Source: a virus
Lineage: Duplodnaviria; Heunggongvirae; Uroviricota; Caudoviricetes
DNA: 36,714 nt
Strand: one strand, 5' to 3'
Virus record (IMG/VR): IMGVR_UViG_2547132418_000017
Shown here: piece by piece, positions 3,331-10,409 of the stretch
Numbering within the stretch: position 1 is the stretch's first letter
How the letters are laid out: the number at the start of each line of letters is the position of its first letter
Position numbers and translations under genes: made by a program
The notes under the pieces: generated by a model
Databases searched by the model: none
What the model was told of the DNA's origin: nothing
Seen by the model: only the letters and a program-made list of their open reading frames with translations

Positions 3331-4224
3331 ATGAGTTTAATTACGCAATTAAATGACGTAATGGCCCGTCGCGGCTATACGCAGACCCACGTCGCCCGTG
3401 CTATTGGTCGTAGCAGCGCCGTTATCAACCAGTATTTACAGGGTAAATATCAGGGCGATATGGCTGATATTGAAGAACGCATTTCTGCCTTCGTGACCCG
3501 TGAGCGGGAAAAGGAAAACAGCCGCCGTATTAAAGCAAAGTTTGTGACCACCGGTATGGCTGCCAAAGGACTGGAGGTGCTGGCCTACGCTCACCTGGAA
3601 TGTGAAATCTGTGTGCTGTATGGCGCGGCAGGTCTTGGCAAAACAATGATTCTGCGTGAATACGCCTCCAGAAACCGGGATGCGGTCCTGATTGAGGCTG
3701 ACCCGGGCTATACAGCCAGGACACTGCTTGAGGAGTTGTGCCGCCAGCTGGGGGTAAAGGTTCGCGGCAACATTCACGAACTGATTGATGCCTGTGTGCG
3801 CGAACTGCGTGATTCCGGTCGTCTGCTGATGGTGGACGAGGCTGAACTGCTCCCCTATCGCGCACTGGAGGTTCTGCGCCGTCTGCATGACAAAGCGGGT
3901 ATCGGGGTTGTCCTGGCGGGTATGCCTCGTCTTCTGATTAATCTCAAGGGGCGTCGTGGTGAATTTGCGCAGTTATACAGCCGCGTGGCGCTGGCGCTTA
4001 ACCTGGGCGACATGCTGGCGCAGGAAGATTTTAACCAGATAGCCACCGGGCTGATGCCGGAAGCAGCAGAACGGGAAATCAGCGAGGCGCTTTACGCACG
4101 CTCGCTGGGTAATGCCCGCCGCCTGTTCAAACTGGCGCGTGGTGTGTACCGGATTTGTGATATCAGCGATGCGCCGGTCAGTGTGCAGGCCATTGATAAA
4201 TTCGCAGAAATGTTAATTCACTGA
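3331..4224 (+). CDS. Mu-type transposition ATPase B, 297 aa
   Basis: Walker A GAAGLGKT, Walker B LLMVDEAE, N-terminal HTH-like segment; immediately downstream of transposase A. Confidence 0.9.
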   Translation: MSLITQLNDVMARRGYTQTHVARAIGRSSAVINQYLQGKYQGDMADIEERISAFVTREREKENSRRIKAKFVTTGMAAKGLEVLAYAHLECEICVLYGAAGLGKTMILREYASRNRDAVLIEADPGYTARTLLEELCRQLGVKVRGNIHELIDACVRELRDSGRLLMVDEAELLPYRALEVLRRLHDKAGIGVVLAGMPRLLINLKGRRGEFAQLYSRVALALNLGDMLAQEDFNQIATGLMPEAAEREISEALYARSLGNARRLFKLARGVYRICDISDAPVSVQAIDKFAEMLIH

Positions 4225-4463
4225 TGGAGAACAAGATGATGGACAAGCAGACCATTAACGCCGTCCGTTCCCGTGCCCGTGTGGCCATCCACACCACCGG
4301 CGGTCGCGTAACTGGGCAACATCACCGTTTACCTGTGGTTTATGCCTGCCCGCCCGTGGGCGGCCCTGTATGGCCGGTAACGGAAATCATCCAGACATTC
4401 AGCGGCCTGCGCCGCGTGGTGAAAACGTCCTGTATCGACGGCTGCACCGTCGTATGGCAATAA
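4224..4463 (+). CDS. Hypothetical protein, 79 aa
   Basis: ATG overlaps the transposase B stop (TGATGG), suggesting translational coupling; no recognisable family. Confidence 0.45.
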   Translation: MENKMMDKQTINAVRSRARVAIHTTGGRVTGQHHRLPVVYACPPVGGPVWPVTEIIQTFSGLRRVVKTSCIDGCTVVWQ

Positions 4464-4475
4464 GAGGAAATCAGA

Positions 4476-4691
4476 ATGGCGGTTAAGTTAGAAGTAATTA
4501 TCTATACCGATGAAAAAGGCTGTGTTTTAACCCAGACCACGGGGAGTTATTCGAAGGACGGAGCTTCCGAAAAGGAGTTTCAGGTGGCAACAAGATTACA
4601 TGATGCTATCAAGGAAACGCTCAGAAATGACTATAACGGCGTGAATCTTTTTTCTGAAAATGTTGCGCCTCGCGCACATAACACACATTAA
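4476..4691 (+). CDS. Hypothetical protein, 71 aa
   Basis: ORF with SD AGAGGAAA upstream; no recognisable family. Confidence 0.45.
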   Translation: MAVKLEVIIYTDEKGCVLTQTTGSYSKDGASEKEFQVATRLHDAIKETLRNDYNGVNLFSENVAPRAHNTH

Positions 4692-4720
4692 TCTGTAAAT
4701 ATCACTGAGGTAATTTAATT

Positions 4721-5365
4721 ATGACTACTGAAAATAAAGTTAAGCAATACACGAAAACTCAAGCGCCTGAAGGTTACTGGGTGGATGCCCGTGGCGTAAT
4801 GACACCTGAAAGCCTTATCAAAGATATTGACCGCGACCGCGAGCAGCTGGTCGGTGAGCTTGTGGAGATGGTGATTACTGCCTCCGCCTCACTGCGGGAA
4901 CTGAAACTGCGTGCGTTTGGTGATATCCAGGCATTTATTGACCTGTCGGCAGAGAAATACGGTGCTGTGAAAGGCGGCAAAAAAGGGAATATCACGCTTT
5001 ACAGCTTTGACGGGCGTTACAAGATTCAGCGCGCCATGCAGGACCGTATCGCGTTTGATGAACGCATTCAGACCGCGAAGGCGCTGATTGACGACTGTCT
5101 GGCTGACTGGACGGAAGGTGCGCGCCCTGAAATTAAAGCCATCATCAGTGAGGCATTCAGCACGGACAAGGAAGGCAACATCAACACCGGGCGCGTTCTG
5201 GCCCTGCGTCGCCTCGAAATTGAGGACGAACGCTGGAATAACGCCATGTCGCTGATTGGTGAAGCCGTCCAGGTGATTGGCAGCAAGAGCTATATTCGTG
5301 TGTATGAGCGCGTTGGTGATTCTGATGAATACCGCGCAATCCCTCTTGATATTGCAGGGGTTTAA
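4721..5365 (+). CDS. DUF3164-like protein, 214 aa
   Basis: Resembles the DUF3164 family common in Mu-like prophages (recalled, not searched); sits where Mu carries gam. Confidence 0.6.
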   Translation: MTTENKVKQYTKTQAPEGYWVDARGVMTPESLIKDIDRDREQLVGELVEMVITASASLRELKLRAFGDIQAFIDLSAEKYGAVKGGKKGNITLYSFDGRYKIQRAMQDRIAFDERIQTAKALIDDCLADWTEGARPEIKAIISEAFSTDKEGNINTGRVLALRRLEIEDERWNNAMSLIGEAVQVIGSKSYIRVYERVGDSDEYRAIPLDIAGV

Positions 5366-5366
5366 T

Positions 5367-5600
5367 ATGCATCAGAATATCAAAGAGTACAGAGCCGGAA
5401 ATAGTTGCGCGGCGTATTCGCTGGGCGCGTCCAGAGCAGAACAACGCGGCGATTATGACGAGGCAGAAAAACTGTGGCGCAAGGCAGCGCAAAGCCCGTG
5501 TAGCACCCTGCGCCGCACCTGGGCTGAACATCGTGCGGAGTTCTGCGCTAACGCTCACCTGAAGGGATGGAGGCCACGCCATGAATGCGAAGAACTTTAA
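5367..5600 (+). CDS. Hypothetical protein, 77 aa
   Basis: ATG at 5367 one nt after the upstream stop, SD AGGGG 5356..5360; the longer form from 5277 overlaps the previous gene and is less likely. Confidence 0.4.
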   Translation: MHQNIKEYRAGNSCAAYSLGASRAEQRGDYDEAEKLWRKAAQSPCSTLRRTWAEHRAEFCANAHLKGWRPRHECEEL

Positions 5601-5772
5601 TAAGTTATATCCGCTTGGTACTCGTTTCATGCACATTGCACATCAGGCGGTGCGTGGTGGGCGGGTGGTAAAAACTGTTGCACCGGCCAGAGATTTTAAA
5701 TGTGGTTGTGTGATTGAAATTAATGTCGAGCCTTATTTCGTAAAAGTCGAAACACTGAAAGCACCGCATTAA
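5581..5772 (+). CDS. Hypothetical protein, 63 aa
   Basis: ORF overlapping the end of the previous gene; followed by the AT-rich spacer and hairpin. Confidence 0.35.
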   Translation: MNAKNFNKLYPLGTRFMHIAHQAVRGGRVVKTVAPARDFKCGCVIEINVEPYFVKVETLKAPH

Positions 5773-5803
5773 TTTAATTTGTTTTTAATTGTTATTTAAA
5801 ACA

Positions 5804-5841
5804 GGCGTAACCCCGCCGGGGCTGGCTTACGCCTGAATCTG
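5804..5841 (+). repeat. Hairpin-plus-RBS cassette, copy 1
   Basis: GGCGTAA (5804..5810) / TTACGCC (5827..5833) stem around a 16-nt GC-rich loop, then TGAATCTG and SD GGAGG; 38 nt identical to 6429..6466. Confidence 0.7.
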
Positions 5842-5853
5842 GAGGATTTGTAT

Positions 5854-6399
5854 ATGAAAGATAAAGTCTGGGATTTTATTGTTGCTCCTGAAGGTTTTGC
5901 CACCCGTTCATCTGAGAAGTTAACCAATGTAACGTTATGGGCATCATCATTGCTGGGCCATCTGGGAGCACCTGCCGATTTTATGTATGTGGTACTTGAT
6001 GCGCAGATTGCCGGAAATGCTGTGGCCAGTAATGGGGCTTATATTCAGGGGGATTTGTTCGCCATGATGGCGAATGACACAGCAGCGCTGTATATCGCCA
6101 CACGGAACATACTGACAAGAATATCCATGCTGTCTGACTGTAAGGATATGGAAGACCTCGCATACATCCTTGAAGATGATTTGCTCACTATTTCAGGTGT
6201 GCAGGAATCCCTCTCGCGTCAGTTGCGGTTTATTGAACTGATGGAGTCATATAAAGATAAGCCTGATTTTTTTCAGATTCGATTCAGCGGGATGGAACTG
6301 CTGGATAAATATTATCCGCTGGATTCGATTGCCCGTGATGTGAAGGCGTTCGTTAAGTCTGTTGGCCGCCATTACTGGAAAGCTGAACGTCGTAGTTAA
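5854..6399 (+). CDS. Hypothetical protein, 181 aa
   Basis: ATG 5854 with SD GGAGG 5841..5845; no recognisable family. Confidence 0.55.
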   Translation: MKDKVWDFIVAPEGFATRSSEKLTNVTLWASSLLGHLGAPADFMYVVLDAQIAGNAVASNGAYIQGDLFAMMANDTAALYIATRNILTRISMLSDCKDMEDLAYILEDDLLTISGVQESLSRQLRFIELMESYKDKPDFFQIRFSGMELLDKYYPLDSIARDVKAFVKSVGRHYWKAERRS

Positions 6400-6428
6400 T
6401 AAGTCTGTTTTTAATTTTATTTGTATAT

Positions 6429-6466
6429 GGCGTAACCCCGCCGGGGCTGGCTTACGCCTGAATCTG
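6429..6466 (+). repeat. Hairpin-plus-RBS cassette, copy 2
   Basis: Identical 38-nt core to 5804..5841, again directly upstream of a start codon (6478). Confidence 0.7.
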
Positions 6467-6477
6467 AGGGATTCATT

Positions 6478-7194
6478 ATGGAAAATAAAAGCAAATACAT
6501 CGCCAAAATTAAAAAGCTGTTACGCCTTGCCAGAGGAACATCAAGCCCGGAAGAAGCCGCTAACGCTATTGCAAAAGCCCAGGCTTATATGCGCCAGCAT
6601 GGCATCAGCGAAAACGACGCTGAATTGTTCGACATTCAGGAAGCTGCCAGCGCGGGTGCGCCGAGTGATGCCAGTACACCGCCGCGTTATATGCACATCC
6701 TGTGTGACCTGGTCTGTAAAGCCTTCGGTGTCGAGTGTTACATCTCCGGCGAATACCGGGCTTCTGGTTCACTCAAACGTTACGTTCGTTTTTATGGTCC
6801 TGACAGCCGCCCGGAAATTGCGGCATATGCGTTTGATGTGCTTTCCCGTCAGATGATGGCAGAGCGCAAGAAATATCAGGATAAACACTGCAAACGTTGC
6901 GGCCCGTCCACGCGGGTGGCCCGTGGCGACCAGTTCTGCGAAGGCTGGGTCTTTGGTGCCCGTGATGTCATTGCGGTGTATGACGTCTCCCCGGAAGAAA
7001 AAAGCCGCCTTGAGCTTTACAGAAAGAACCTGCACAGCACTAAGGGACTGCGCGACGGGGATATGCGCACAGCTAAAGCGTGCCGGGGTGCAGAGTTTGC
7101 CGCTACTGCCGGTTTTATCGCCGGGAAAAACGCCAGACTGCATCAGGGGGTTAATGGTCAGAGCAACAAAACGCTGGCACTGGGGAGGGTGTAA
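6478..7194 (+). CDS. DUF2786-like protein with C-terminal Cys cluster, 238 aa
   Basis: N-terminal KIKKLLRLARGTSSPEEAANAIAKAQAYMRQHGI resembles the DUF2786 family as I recall it; C-terminal HCKRCG...FCEGW. Confidence 0.55.
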   Translation: MENKSKYIAKIKKLLRLARGTSSPEEAANAIAKAQAYMRQHGISENDAELFDIQEAASAGAPSDASTPPRYMHILCDLVCKAFGVECYISGEYRASGSLKRYVRFYGPDSRPEIAAYAFDVLSRQMMAERKKYQDKHCKRCGPSTRVARGDQFCEGWVFGARDVIAVYDVSPEEKSRLELYRKNLHSTKGLRDGDMRTAKACRGAEFAATAGFIAGKNARLHQGVNGQSNKTLALGRV

Positions 7195-7196
7195 CG

Positions 7197-7424
7197 ATGG
7201 CTTTTAAACTTCTCAGTGTTACCGAAGCAATATACCAGCCGCCCGGAGAACGCCACGAATACAGGATGAATGACGGTAGCGCGGCGGTTGAGTTCCCCGG
7301 ATATCCGGGGGCTTCCCGGTGGCGGTTCTATGACAGTGCGGGACGCCGGATTATTAAAAGAATCGTGCACAACGCCATGAAAGCCGCTGTAGAACGTCAC
7401 AAAAGGAGGTTTAACTGCAAATGA
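7197..7424 (+). CDS. Hypothetical protein, 75 aa
   Basis: ORF starting 2 nt after the upstream stop. Confidence 0.4.
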   Translation: MAFKLLSVTEAIYQPPGERHEYRMNDGSAAVEFPGYPGASRWRFYDSAGRRIIKRIVHNAMKAAVERHKRRFNCK

Positions 7425-7645
7425 ATATTGAATTTTATAACTATGGGACTAAAGCAAAAATCATTGTTACCTGCTGGCTCTGGGAGTTTCGCCGCTATAA
7501 CCGGGTTGTGGATGCGGCGCTTTTTGTGGCCCCTGAAGTGCACCATCAGAGCGGTGGCGGTCTTTTAATGAGAACCGTCATCTACGGTAAGACGGTCCCG
7601 ATGTTACGGGCGTTTAAAGTGGCAAAACAGGAGGCTGCACAATGA
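7421..7645 (+). CDS. Hypothetical protein, 74 aa
   Basis: ATGA start-stop overlap with the previous gene; AT-rich. Confidence 0.4.
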   Translation: MNIEFYNYGTKAKIIVTCWLWEFRRYNRVVDAALFVAPEVHHQSGGGLLMRTVIYGKTVPMLRAFKVAKQEAAQ

Positions 7646-7833
7646 GTAACGAGCACATCCATCATTATCAGCGTGATGGGTCAATTTTCATATGCCAGCG
7701 TTGCGGCACAGCAAAGCATCGTAATGGTAAATACTGGTGGGCCGGTCGCTATTCAGAATCTGAACCACCATGTGTTGATGATGTTGTGGGGCAGGATGCG
7801 TGGTTTGAAACTGCAAAAAGCGAGGAAGGATGA
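7642..7833 (+). CDS. Hypothetical Cys-containing small protein (possible Zn ribbon), 63 aa
   Basis: ATGA overlap with upstream gene; CQRCG motif plus a further Cys. Confidence 0.4.
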   Translation: MSNEHIHHYQRDGSIFICQRCGTAKHRNGKYWWAGRYSESEPPCVDDVVGQDAWFETAKSEEG

Positions 7834-7834
7834 G

Positions 7835-8023
7835 ATGAAAAACCGTAAGGCAAGACTGCTGATAGCAAAGCCCGGGCAGTGTATCCGTATCTCAAACAGG
7901 CTTGTTATTTACTATAGATATCTGGGTTTTAGGGGGGGTTCCTCTATTCGTTTTTACGGTGTCTGGCGGAGCAGAAGCGCGGCGCAAAACCGCTGGAGGA
8001 ATCACGGAGCAACAACACGATGA
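7835..8023 (+). CDS. Hypothetical small basic protein, 62 aa
   Basis: ATG 7835 with SD GAGGAAGGA immediately upstream; this is the 3' part of six-frame ORF 7673..8023. Confidence 0.35.
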   Translation: MKNRKARLLIAKPGQCIRISNRLVIYYRYLGFRGGSSIRFYGVWRSRSAAQNRWRNHGATTR

Positions 8024-8205
8024 AAACTATCACTGTAACGGTTGAAATCGACGTTCCTGATAACGCAACGGACAATGATATTGCTGATTTTGTCGATGTC
8101 GAGTATGGGGAGTGCGGAAAAATGGCACTTGATAACCCATGCCGGACAGATGGAACGGAAATACTCGATGCCAGATGGGAACACGGACCTGATTACGCGA
8201 GGTGA
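8020..8205 (+). CDS. Hypothetical acidic protein, 61 aa
   Basis: ATGA overlap with upstream ORF. Confidence 0.4.
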   Translation: MKTITVTVEIDVPDNATDNDIADFVDVEYGECGKMALDNPCRTDGTEILDARWEHGPDYAR

Positions 8206-8208
8206 AAT

Positions 8209-8466
8209 ATGAGATTGGTTGACCTTTTTATTATCGCTCTGATTATTACGGTTATTGCGCTTTGCGTTACAACGGGCAAGGAACCTGATGTTCCTGGTGA
8301 TACGGGTGGGCATTGCGTGGTAAGGAGAAGTTTCATCAAAACCATTACGCATTGTGATGATGGAAGCGCCACCATGACCAGCGGCGATAAGTTTATATAC
8401 TGCTCTGCCGGGAAAGATGGCACGCCATCCTGTCATGAAGTGACGCTCAGTGATGGTGATAAATAA
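8209..8466 (+). CDS. Hypothetical small membrane-anchored Cys-rich protein, 85 aa
   Basis: N-terminal hydrophobic segment LVDLFIIALIITVIALCV followed by a Cys-containing soluble part; AT-rich. Confidence 0.4.
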   Translation: MRLVDLFIIALIITVIALCVTTGKEPDVPGDTGGHCVVRRSFIKTITHCDDGSATMTSGDKFIYCSAGKDGTPSCHEVTLSDGDK

Positions 8467-8492
8467 TTCATCATGTTGAGCGGATAATAATC

Positions 8493-8825
8493 ATGCGCAG
8501 ACCAAAACATATGTTTTGGTCTTCCAAAAGTGATGTTTTGGTCATTATGAAAATTGAACAAATCGGAATAGCTGCCTTCAGGCAGCAGGCTGAAAGCGGT
8601 GGTGTGGATGAGTTCGTCGTGCAGCGGTTCGGTGGTGTGTATCACCTCTTCGCTGTGAATCGCCGCGCCGGGGTGTCCTATTTTCTACAGGAACGCCGTG
8701 GCGATTACAAGACGTGGCTGTCTCTTGACCGTGCCGCCGCGTTCCTGTCGGGGATTGGTGTTTCACGTTTTACCGTGCGTTTTGAGGATAACAAACATGC
8801 TGAAAAAGATGATCGGGGCCATTAA
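8493..8825 (+). CDS. Hypothetical protein (start ambiguous: 8493, 8511 or 8547)
   Basis: ORF upstream of and overlapping the GemA-like gene by 29 nt in another frame; no strong SD at any candidate start. Confidence 0.35.
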   Translation: MRRPKHMFWSSKSDVLVIMKIEQIGIAAFRQQAESGGVDEFVVQRFGGVYHLFAVNRRAGVSYFLQERRGDYKTWLSLDRAAAFLSGIGVSRFTVRFEDNKHAEKDDRGH

Positions 8826-9192
8826 AGCCGGTCAGGCGTATCTGGGGTGGGATGATGCCCTTTATCGCCAGACGCTGGCCCGCCTGACCGGTAAAACCAG
8901 CACCACACGCTGCAATCTCGATGAACTGCGCATCATCCGGGAATACATGCACGAACAGGGATTCCCGCGCAAGGCACCCGCTGGTAAAGGTCGCCGCCCT
9001 CGTGTTGCAATGAGCAGAAAATCAGTATTATCCAAAATTGAAGCGTTGCTGGCTGATGCCGGTCGTTCCTGGGCGTATGTAGAAGGACTGGCATCTCACA
9101 TGTATAAGCAACATGTGATCGAATGGCTGACGGATGAACAGCTTTTTGGAGTGATGGTGGCGCTGGTTAAAGATTCAAGGAGACGTAAATGA
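8797..9192 (+). CDS. gemA: GemA-like protein (Mu gp16 family), 131 aa
   Basis: ATG 8797 with SD GAGG upstream; sequence recalled as resembling the Mu gp16/GemA (DUF1018) family; position just before the Mor-like gene as in Mu. Confidence 0.55.
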   Translation: MLKKMIGAIKAGQAYLGWDDALYRQTLARLTGKTSTTRCNLDELRIIREYMHEQGFPRKAPAGKGRRPRVAMSRKSVLSKIEALLADAGRSWAYVEGLASHMYKQHVIEWLTDEQLFGVMVALVKDSRRRK

Positions 9193-9527
9193 AAAAACTG
9201 TTATTACTTATTCTGACTTTATGTTTTACAGGGATATCCCATGCTTCTGATTCAGAGGAAGATTTGATCAAAAAAACATTACAGGGCGATTATCAGGCAC
9301 AACGTAATCTGGCTTATTCATACATGAATGGCTGGGATGATATTTCAAAGGATACCATCAGAGGATGCGCTCTCAGGAAGGTTATTCTCTTAACACAAGC
9401 CCAAGCTGACATTGGCGATTATGGAAATGAAGCCATAGATTGTCGAAAAGTGCATCCAACAGATAACCAGAAAGTATGGGAGTATGTCAGAGGATACCTG
9501 GTGTTGATAAACGAGAATAAAAAATAA
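9189..9527 (+). CDS. Secreted or lipoprotein-like small protein, 112 aa (moron candidate)
   Basis: N-terminal signal-peptide-like MKKLLLLILTLCFTGISHA; strongly AT-rich relative to neighbours; followed by an intrinsic terminator. Confidence 0.6.
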   Translation: MKKLLLLILTLCFTGISHASDSEEDLIKKTLQGDYQAQRNLAYSYMNGWDDISKDTIRGCALRKVILLTQAQADIGDYGNEAIDCRKVHPTDNQKVWEYVRGYLVLINENKK

Positions 9528-9537
9528 TATGAATAAC

Positions 9538-9564
9538 AACCTTCGCAAACGCGGAGGTTTTTTA
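9538..9564 (+). terminator. Rho-independent terminator
   Basis: Stem CCTTCGC/GCGGAGG (one G-U pair), loop AAAC, then TTTTTTA. Confidence 0.6.
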
Positions 9565-9591
9565 TGGTCTGTACAGGCGATCATGTATGGC

Positions 9592-9597
9592 TATAAT
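9592..9597 (+). promoter_or_regulatory. Perfect -10 hexamer TATAAT with no recognisable -35 (candidate activator-dependent promoter)
   Basis: TATAAT 30 bp upstream of the Mor-like ATG; sequence 17-18 bp upstream (CTGTAC) is a poor -35. Confidence 0.4.
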
Positions 9598-9626
9598 AAC
9601 AGTAAGTTACTAACGGAGACGCCATC

Positions 9627-10094
9627 ATGCAGACCTTCAGTGAAACAGATCTTCGCGATGCACAGGCACTGCTACCCGATTCCGTACAGCAACTGATTAG
9701 CGTGATTGGCTTCCCCGCCCTGACCCGGTTGATTTGTTCTTTTGGTGGTGTGACGTTAAGTGGTAAAACCGGCGCACACGCCGAACGCACCGGCGGTGTC
9801 CATGCCCTGTTACATGACGTGCTGACCGAAGACGAAATCAACAAACTGATCCGCTTTCTTGGCGGTGCACCGTTTTACATTCCCCGTTGCGATCATGCGT
9901 TACGTGCCCTGCGTAACACCCGTTTTATGGCTGATTTACAGCAGCATGTAAAAGGCGGATGCTCACACCGGCAGGCGCTGGCACTGCTCTGTCCCCGTTA
10001 CGGCATTTCAGACCGGTACGCATGGCAGCTGATACACCGACGACAAAAACAGACTTCGCTGAAAAGCCCCACCCAGGTGGGGCTTTTTGATTAA
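9627..10094 (+). CDS. mor: Mor/C-family transcriptional activator, 155 aa
   Basis: FYIPRCDHALRALRNTRF and C-terminal HTH-like RYGISDRYAWQLI resemble Mu Mor/C; located before the lysis and late genes. Confidence 0.75.
   Translation: MQTFSETDLRDAQALLPDSVQQLISVIGFPALTRLICSFGGVTLSGKTGAHAERTGGVHALLHDVLTEDEINKLIRFLGGAPFYIPRCDHALRALRNTRFMADLQQHVKGGCSHRQALALLCPRYGISDRYAWQLIHRRQKQTSLKSPTQVGLFD
10065..10089 (+). terminator. Rho-independent terminator overlapping the 3' end of the Mor-like gene
   Basis: AGCCCCACC / GGTGGGGCT stem followed by TTTTT; lies within the last codons of the ORF. Confidence 0.65.
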
Positions 10095-10121
10095 TGGGCC
10101 TCAGAAAAAAGGAGACACGAA

Positions 10122-10409
10122 ATGATGCGTTCTGACACCGATATCGACTATGCAGTACTCGGTGAATATACCGCATTTTCAGACAAGGCCCGGGATGCAG
10201 CCCGTCGCCGACATGCTGAAATGTGTAATTTATCCAGTTACCTGGCGAAACAGGCCCAAAGCCCGGAATCAGTAACGAATCATGATGAAGTGCTGTCAGC
10301 CGTAAACAGAATGATTGACGCAGAACGGGAAATGCGTAATGCCGTGGAAAGAGCTAACCTGCTGGCGCGGGCATGTTATAAGCCACCATTAAAACTCGCT
10401 TCTCTTTAA
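10122..10409 (+). CDS. Hypothetical protein, 95 aa
   Basis: Strong SD AAGGAG 7 nt upstream of ATG; no recognisable family. Confidence 0.5.
   Translation: MMRSDTDIDYAVLGEYTAFSDKARDAARRRHAEMCNLSSYLAKQAQSPESVTNHDEVLSAVNRMIDAEREMRNAVERANLLARACYKPPLKLASL

Follow-up and report, generated by a model that had tools for sequence, protein, structure and literature searches.

The distal early region of a Mu-like prophage: a conserved backbone that carries Rnr, and unexplained cassettes

In phage Mu, the interval between the transposase gene B and the activator gene mor holds the semi-essential early region, a run of small, closely packed genes on one strand which begins with kil and has gemA near its end. 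Mu Kil is linked to cell killing and a block of cell division, and Mu GemA is a modulator of DNA supercoiling and of gene expression in the host. The subject of this report is the corresponding interval in a 36,714-nucleotide (nt) stretch of viral DNA (Caudoviricetes; IMG/VR record IMGVR_UViG_2547132418_000017), the whole of which is referred to below as the window. Here too, small packed genes lie between B and mor on the same strand, with a relative of Kil first and a GemA-family protein near the end, and the block occupies the place of the Mu semi-essential early genes, as an original prediction made from the sequence alone had proposed.

Judged by its early proteins, the window is a Mu-like transposable prophage, because Ner (34% identity), A (just 22%) and B (just 32%) are distant homologues of the Mu proteins. 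Within the block, Kil and GemA are the only points in common with Mu, no other PHROG family being shared. Mu has gam, whose product is a Ku-like inhibitor of host nucleases, whereas the window has no detectable Gam and carries proteins with DUF3164 and DUF2786/DUF7168 domains instead. The right-hand boundary also differs: in Mu the end of gemA overlaps mor directly, whilst in the window mor lies behind a terminator and has a promoter-like site of its own.

Closer in layout are the B3-type phages of Pseudomonas (B3, JBD25), which have the skeleton A-B-...-DUF3164-DUF2786-...-GemA-...-Mor, as in the window, and whose DUF3164 gene is about 67% identical to that of the window at the DNA level. However, B3 and JBD25 have no annotated relatives of ANR, Kil, g05 or g08, their intervening small genes are unrelated and they belong to another host. 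In Mu-like phages of Pseudomonas aeruginosa, a core is accompanied by small, low-GC, strain-specific ORFs (open reading frames) at fixed sites, mainly in the left arm (PMC4378225). The same arrangement is seen here, although in another lineage and with other gene families; in addition, one slot of the window is bounded by a duplicated hairpin, whereas no shared flanking sequence was seen in the Pseudomonas phages (PMC4378225).

The last point of comparison is the ANR (AraC negative regulator) family, to which Aar of enteroaggregative Escherichia coli and Rnr of Citrobacter rodentium and enteropathogenic E. coli (EPEC) belong, and of which a member 90-96% identical to Rnr is encoded by the fourth gene of the block, g04. 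Rnr and Aar bind H-NS-family proteins, damp activators of the AraC/XylS type and alter how hundreds of genes are expressed (PMC4038620, PMC5570504, PMC10148876).

A conserved backbone and four variable slots

The block and its two neighbours are placed as follows.

3331-4224, + strand: transposase gene B, 32% identity to Mu B at the protein level
4224-9527, + strand: the block, 16 ORFs (g01 to g16) between B and mor, coding fraction 0.94
9627-10094, + strand: mor, encoding a Mor-family activator (Pfam Mor, phrog_836)

Mosaic copies of the block are found in 82 complete E. coli genomes at 92-95% identity, and IMG/VR contains 18 further close relatives. Among isolated phages, a megablast search returned no close relative, the sole match being 167 bp of Escherichia phage HEMP4. 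To define which parts of the block are constant, the B-to-Mor intervals of the window and of 21 relatives were compared, ORFs being selected by interval scheduling and then clustered. The Kil-like g01, g02, DUF3164 (g03), ANR (g04), g05, DUF2786/DUF7168 (g07), g08, g09, g14 and GemA (g15) are present in all 22 intervals and g11 in 21, giving a backbone of eleven genes. The variable component amounts to 28 families, five of them in the window and 23 in the other intervals, and all are confined to four fixed slots, denoted by their flanking genes as B|g02, g05|g07, g09|g14 and GemA|mor. Three of these are filled in the window, the B|g02 slot being without an extra cassette. The five window cassettes (g06, g10, g12, g13 and g16) have a GC content of 0.38-0.47, against 0.54 for the window, and among the slot contents of the relatives are Ead/Ea22-like, DUF4752 and DUF7448 proteins.

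The original prediction regarded the whole 5 kb as accessory. This has to be given up: 11 of the 16 genes, and about two thirds of the supposed accessory block, are conserved backbone present in 21 or 22 of the 22 intervals, and one of them, DUF3164, is the best-conserved early protein. What remains has the form of a plasticity region, with small, non-homologous ORFs at four fixed sites between conserved genes. The block can be described with high confidence as the distal part of an early operon composed of a backbone and plasticity slots. As a genome feature it is ordinary, the early region of a prophage family which is common in E. coli and which RefSeq annotates in dozens of genomes of that species; some of its cassettes are unexplained, but so far it contains nothing that would count as a system of a new kind.

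That the genes are tightly chained had been anticipated, about 15 small coupled genes having been proposed; there are 16, at a density of 94%. Between B and mor there are 17 junctions. Six are overlaps, namely four of the ATGA type, one of 20 nt and another of 29 nt; a further four are gaps of 1-3 nt, three are gaps of 11-29 nt and four are gaps of 78-99 nt. Thus 10 of the 17 overlap or are at most 3 nt apart. Conserved hairpins lie in three of the four large gaps and a terminator in the fourth.

The ORFs of the block are real genes, because each has an essentially full-length match to a PHROG family (E values of 1e-36 to 1e-127, the weakest in the block being g11 at 2.6e-8), the ratio of nonsynonymous to synonymous polymorphism (pN/pS) stays below 1, and identical frames are annotated by RefSeq in related E. 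coli prophages. The pN/pS values, calculated over the 22 related prophages, range from 0.06 to 0.59 in the 15 genes with enough variation and indicate purifying selection; g10 has no differences to score among the relatives. It could still be argued that some of the small ORFs are chance frames in a spacer-rich regulatory stretch, as several are just 61-63 codons long and g14 is without a clear Shine-Dalgarno sequence. However, the full-length relatives of all the ORFs, the selection acting on them, the agreement of RefSeq and the arrangement on one strand at high density, with ribosome-binding sites and ATGA overlaps, make this highly improbable.

Rnr and DUF3164 in the backbone

Two adjacent backbone genes stand out.

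4721-5365, + strand: g03, DUF3164 protein, 214 amino acids; PF11363 at E 2.5e-81 over 193 of 194 model positions; in all 22 intervals
5367-5600, + strand: g04, Rnr, ANR-family protein, 77 amino acids; NCBIfam NF033650; in all 22 intervals

By sequence, the product of g04 is the published virulence regulator Rnr. It scores 57.5 bits against NF033650 (cut-off 32) and covers 50 of the 54 model positions, its length falls within the ANR size range of 39-80 amino acids, and it is 90% identical to Rnr of EPEC strain E2348/69 and 96% identical to WP_012904653.1. The published primers for the cloning of pRnr (PMC10148876) map to 5367-5399 with one mismatch and to 5568-5600 with none. In EPEC E2348/69, rnr was deleted with lambda-Red primers that include the 3' end of the DUF3164 gene together with the first part of g05; these are 100% identical to the prophage copy in eutC of that strain, where the context of rnr is DUF3164-rnr-g05, as in the window. 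In a PDB sequence search, residues 11-42 of g04 resemble a consensus tetratricopeptide repeat (TPR).

The E2348/69 prophage copy (NC_011601.1 2714779-2727956, L104) is inserted in eutC, a gene annotated as truncated, and the early operon of this copy holds rnr.

An ANR gene is found directly behind DUF3164 in Mu-like prophages carried by at least nine further genera, namely Xenorhabdus, Photorhabdus, Mixta, Phytobacter, Pantoea, Trabulsiella, Kosakonia, Morganella and Erwinia. Because it adjoins DUF3164 in these nine, the ANR/Rnr gene has, by this comparison, long been part of the backbone of these phages and did not join it recently. Rnr itself binds H-NS and Ler (PMC4038620, PMC5570504, PMC10148876). 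H-NS represses the Mu early promoter, and antagonists of H-NS are encoded by T7, T4 and LUZ24 (PMC8501957). The most economical reading would be that Rnr acts as a phage counter-silencer of H-NS. The papers on ANR proteins (PMC4038620, PMC5570504, PMC10148876) do not consider that Rnr might be encoded by a transposable prophage within its early operon. Rnr can now be placed in such an operon, beside DUF3164 across many Enterobacterales; this placement suggests a phage-side role in H-NS counter-silencing, and also calls for caution, as rnr phenotypes may depend on the state of the prophage.

The neighbouring DUF3164 gene, whose family had been recognized correctly in the original prediction, was examined in 82 distant loci, comprising 80 from Proteobacteria (one genome per species) and the E. 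coli relatives L001 and L002. DUF3164 was detected in all 82, at a median identity of 61.5%, whilst the figures for transposase A were 54 loci and 31% identity, and those for B 43 loci and 32%. By these figures, DUF3164 is the most constrained early protein, above the transposase. Neither the window nor JBD25 has a detectable homologue of Mu Gam, nor does any of 103 loci that carry DUF3164. Because Gam is not detectable where DUF3164 is present, it can be suggested, with low to moderate confidence, that DUF3164 is a functional replacement of Gam, although this is a correlation only. The literature on DUF3164 and DUF2786 consists of passing mentions, with no functional study. DUF3164 is thereby singled out as a highly constrained protein with an unmatched fold that is present where Gam is absent.

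A proposed organisation and its alternatives

The right-hand end of the block is marked by two signals.

9538-9565, + strand: intrinsic terminator, a 9-bp stem followed by a T run
9570-9597, + strand: promoter-like site TGTACA-N16-TATAAT, 10/12 match to consensus, upstream of mor

All 22 relatives have a hairpin followed by a T run at the terminator position, whether or not a cassette precedes it. There is good evidence that 9538-9565 is a real terminator that ends the block, because this one position is kept with two unrelated stem sequences. Both hexamers of the promoter-like site are likewise kept in all 22, and among the scan hits no internal terminator before 9538 stands out.

The organisation that we favour, and regard as likely, is that the block forms the semi-essential, distal portion of the early operon in a family of transposable prophages of Mu/B3 type that is common in E. 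coli and in bacteria related to it. Upon de-repression, an early mRNA running from ner through A and B to g01...g16 would probably be read as one transcript, ending at 9538-9565 before the separately promoted mor, and the tight or overlapping junctions would couple the translation of neighbouring genes. The eleven backbone genes would re-tune the host for transposition-replication. DUF3164 probably serves the transposing DNA, at the place where Gam-less phages lack Gam, and Rnr would lift the silencing by H-NS of phage and host genes. The cassettes would be strain-specific host-interaction genes, with the membrane or secreted products of g13 and g16 most likely acting at the envelope, for instance in the exclusion of other phages. 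The functions proposed for Kil, Rnr and GemA within the phage are carried over from characterized relatives and can be held with moderate confidence.

Several observations sit uneasily with this organisation. The deletion of rnr has phenotypes in uninduced EPEC lysogens (PMC10148876), which implies that Rnr is made there at a time when the early operon ought to be repressed; this would need an internal promoter or leaky expression. A scan for internal promoters found 9 promoter-like sites against 8.2 expected from shuffling, none of them above chance. The single transcript is itself inferred, as are all the biochemical roles in the phage context, and attenuation or processing of the mRNA could take place at three hairpins (5802-5835, 6429-6460 and 8500-8543). 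The roles of Kil and GemA are transferred from Mu at a local identity of about 31-34%. For DUF3164, a homology with Gam was considered and rejected, the profile comparison with Mu Gam giving a probability of 0.6%; the predicted fold has no match among solved structures, a Ku-like fold was not found, and the idea that DUF3164 stands in for Gam is based solely on position and mutual exclusion. Finally, nothing ties any cassette to a specific function.

The cassettes of the window are the following.

5854-6399, + strand: g06, 181 amino acids; in 8 of 22 relatives; GC 0.45, pN/pS 0.43
7642-7833, + strand: g10, 63 amino acids with one CxxC motif; phrog_7369; in 3 of 22; GC at third codon positions 0.39
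8020-8205, + strand: g12, 61 amino acids, isoelectric point (pI) 4.05; phrog_8773; in 7 of 22
8209-8466, + strand: g13, 85 amino acids; phrog_8391; in 9 of 22; pN/pS 0.46
9189-9527, + strand: g16, 112 amino acids, GC 0.38, the lowest of the cassettes; phrog_5882; in 7 of 22

On sequence grounds, g06 is a lineage-restricted orphan, confined to the copies of this prophage in E. coli: its homologues form just 21 clusters, with all named sources E. coli and none below 82% identity, there is one full-length representative cluster among 1.84 billion, and no remote homologues were found beyond E. coli. The g10 product had been put forward as a possible Zn-ribbon protein. One CxxC is indeed present, but the match to Prok-RING_1 is weak and below threshold (E 0.007; 16.7 bits, the cut-off being 29.1). 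The small membrane-anchored, Cys-rich protein of the original prediction corresponds to g13, which has an N-terminal hydrophobic membrane helix (residues 3-21, maximum hydrophobicity 2.86) and a C-terminal domain with four cysteines that are kept in the homologue compared. In g12, 15 residues are acidic and 5 basic, whilst g16 combines a signal peptide with a weak repeat of the Sel1 type (PDB E 0.0013, Pfam E 0.026). Set beside a moron, which is a self-contained insert of deviating GC with a promoter and a terminator to itself, g16 shows the low GC; its start overlaps the GemA stop codon (ATGA), the promoter scan found no promoter of its own, and the downstream terminator is there with or without a cassette.

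When the GemA|mor slot was compared in the window (9189-9527) and in relatives L085, L088, L095-L098 and L102, it was either empty or occupied by proteins with signal-peptide-like N-termini only (g16, x08 and x23, three unrelated families).

With the backbone set aside, the search for anything new narrows from 16 genes to these five cassettes, and it is reasonable to seek new phage-host functions in the block. It is possible that g13 and g16 act at the envelope, or that g06, g10 and g12 act against host defences. The latter idea, that the block is an anti-defence island in which one or more small early proteins, most plausibly g06, g10 or g12, inhibit restriction, CRISPR (clustered regularly interspaced short palindromic repeats) or abortive infection, survives for the five variable cassettes only. 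These are small, of lower GC, lineage-restricted and part of an early operon, and they occupy hypervariable slots at fixed positions; g12 is strongly acidic, in the manner of DNA-mimic inhibitors, and one plasticity region of the Pseudomonas Mu-like phages carries anti-CRISPR genes (PMC4378225). However, that region lies in the late arm, at another position than the block considered here, acidity on its own is weak evidence, and early accessory genes of phages (the nin, ea and SE regions) often serve other roles. No anti-defence annotation was found among the PHROG matches, no dedicated anti-defence library having been searched, and Pfam and NCBIfam gave no match relevant to anti-defence. The PADLOC defence models likewise matched none of the ORFs, apart from one faint, sub-threshold E2 match in g08 (E 0.0046). 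As an account of the block, an anti-defence island is therefore unlikely.

Lysogenic conversion or superinfection exclusion, in which g13 and g16 would be made in the lysogen and would block other phages or change the host surface, is a somewhat doubtful alternative. It would fit the membrane helix and four cysteines of g13, the signal peptide and weak Sel1-like repeat of g16, the low GC of g16 and the occupation of the GemA|mor slot by signal-peptide-like proteins, where it is not empty. On the other hand, no cassette-specific promoter was found, g16 looks to be co-translated with an early gene, the terminator behind it exists with or without the cassette, and neither protein has homology to known exclusion proteins. 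A bolder proposal would join several of these ideas: DUF3164 would be a new protector of DNA ends or transposition intermediates that replaces Gam, at least one of g06, g10, g12 and g13 would be an undescribed anti-defence or exclusion protein, and Rnr would be primarily an early anti-H-NS factor of the phage. All of this being true together is improbable; if it were, the virulence effects of Rnr would be a side effect of lysogeny.

Remaining backbone genes and hairpins

The other backbone genes, in order, are these.

4236-4463, + strand: g01, Kil-family protein, 75 amino acids; an alternative start at 4224 overlaps the B stop codon
4476-4691, + strand: g02, backbone, 71 amino acids; phrog_7438 (E 1e-52); in all 22
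5581-5772, + strand: g05, backbone, 63 amino acids, overlapping g04 by 20 nt; phrog_5591 (E 2e-41)
6478-7194, + strand: g07, DUF2786 and DUF7168 protein, 238 amino acids; PF10979 (E 5e-13) and PF23771 (E 2e-29); in all 22
7197-7424, + strand: g08, backbone, 75 amino acids, basic; phrog_9400 (E 2e-40); in all 22; pN/pS 0.14
7421-7645, + strand: g09, backbone, 74 amino acids, with an ATGA overlap with g08; phrog_1001 (E 2.5e-36); in all 22
7835-8023, + strand: g11, near-backbone, 62 amino acids, pI 12; phrog_1380 (E 2.6e-8); in 21 of 22
8547-8825, + strand: g14, backbone, 92 amino acids, overlapping GemA by 29 nt; alternative start at 8493
8797-9192, + strand: g15, GemA/gp16-family protein, 131 amino acids; PF06252 (E 7e-18); in all 22

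The DUF2786-like and GemA-like proteins of the original prediction are borne out by these matches. GemA is not, as had been supposed, the only recognizable Mu gene, as g01 is, by sequence, a Kil relative; g04, too, is recognizable, being the experimentally studied Rnr. With a Kil relative, an H-NS/AraC antagonist and GemA, genes of the host-takeover type are present as expected, and it also holds for the majority of the block products that no function can be assigned. g01 matches phrog_2679 ("Kil") at E 1e-38, with a cross-match to phrog_2743, whilst Mu Kil itself belongs to phrog_2743 and cross-matches phrog_2679 at 9e-5. In a blastp comparison, g01 and Mu Kil are 34% identical over the C-terminal 44 residues. 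Like Mu kil, g01 adjoins B directly; it is present in all 22 relatives and has a pN/pS of 0.06. GemA of the window and GemA of Mu fall into a common family, phrog_286. g14 matches phrog_7844 at E 4e-76, is kept in all 22 and has a pN/pS of 0.10. g05 is found in all 22 close relatives and in 25 of the 82 distant loci, mostly directly behind DUF3164 or ANR.

In g07, the original prediction had seen a C-terminal Cys cluster. The cysteines (CKRC...FC) are in fact in the middle of the protein, and among 49 homologues the only near-invariant one is that of the FCEGW motif, CKRC being replaced in distant homologues by RKNIK and similar sequences. A zinc site was considered and rejected, and on sequence grounds is unlikely because the cysteines are not conserved in these homologues. 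The structure model of g07 is a confident one (predicted local distance difference test, pLDDT, 86; predicted template modelling score, pTM, 0.76) but has no neighbour in the PDB beyond helical hairpins.

Three elements lie in the large gaps between genes.

5783-5848, + strand: hairpin element copy 1, 66 nt, with the core GGCGTAACCCCGCCGGGGCTGGCTTACGCC, directly upstream of the next ribosome-binding site
6408-6473, + strand: hairpin element copy 2, 66 nt, a direct repeat of copy 1, the two copies bracketing g06
8500-8543, + strand: a tandem pair of palindromes (GACCAAAACATATGTTTTGGTC, CCAAAAGTGATGTTTTGG) which closes the g09|g14 slot on the right

The two copies of the hairpin element are 85% identical and have in common an exact 30-mer, which occurs twice in the window against an expectation of 0. 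The element is present behind g05 in all 22 relatives, and a second copy is present exactly when g06 is (8 of 8). In E. coli it was found in 43 genomes, at one or two places in each, and among the matches listed all were at the prophage locus; it is absent from phage records. The possibility that it is a genome-wide element like the repetitive extragenic palindromic (REP) sequences was rejected on the grounds of this restricted distribution. The 66-nt hairpin may mark the recombination joint of the g06 slot or may act on the mRNA. The palindromes at 8500-8543, which are of the CCAAAAC..GTTTTGG type and lie upstream of g14, give an RNA fold with a z-score of -4.7. In all 22 relatives their arms are conserved, irrespective of the upstream cassette, and the variation falls mostly at the centres; the palindromes could be an operator, or an element of mRNA processing or translation control.

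An Rfam scan of 4000-10200 gave sub-threshold chance matches only, and sequence searches of the PDB with ten products gave nothing beyond the consensus-TPR similarity of g04 and the weak Sel1 match of g16.

Some further features of individual genes may be mentioned. Unlike its neighbours, g02 is diverging (pN 0.19, pN/pS 0.59 among relatives), though it is kept in all 22. The stretch 7831-7997, at g11, accounts for the sole close match of the block to an isolated phage, being 93.5% identical to Escherichia phage HEMP4, and g11 is duplicated in some relatives. Downstream of mor, an ORF of 95 amino acids at 10122-10409 belongs to phrog_7152 and is conserved, with an identity of 98-100% in the two E. 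coli relatives that were compared.

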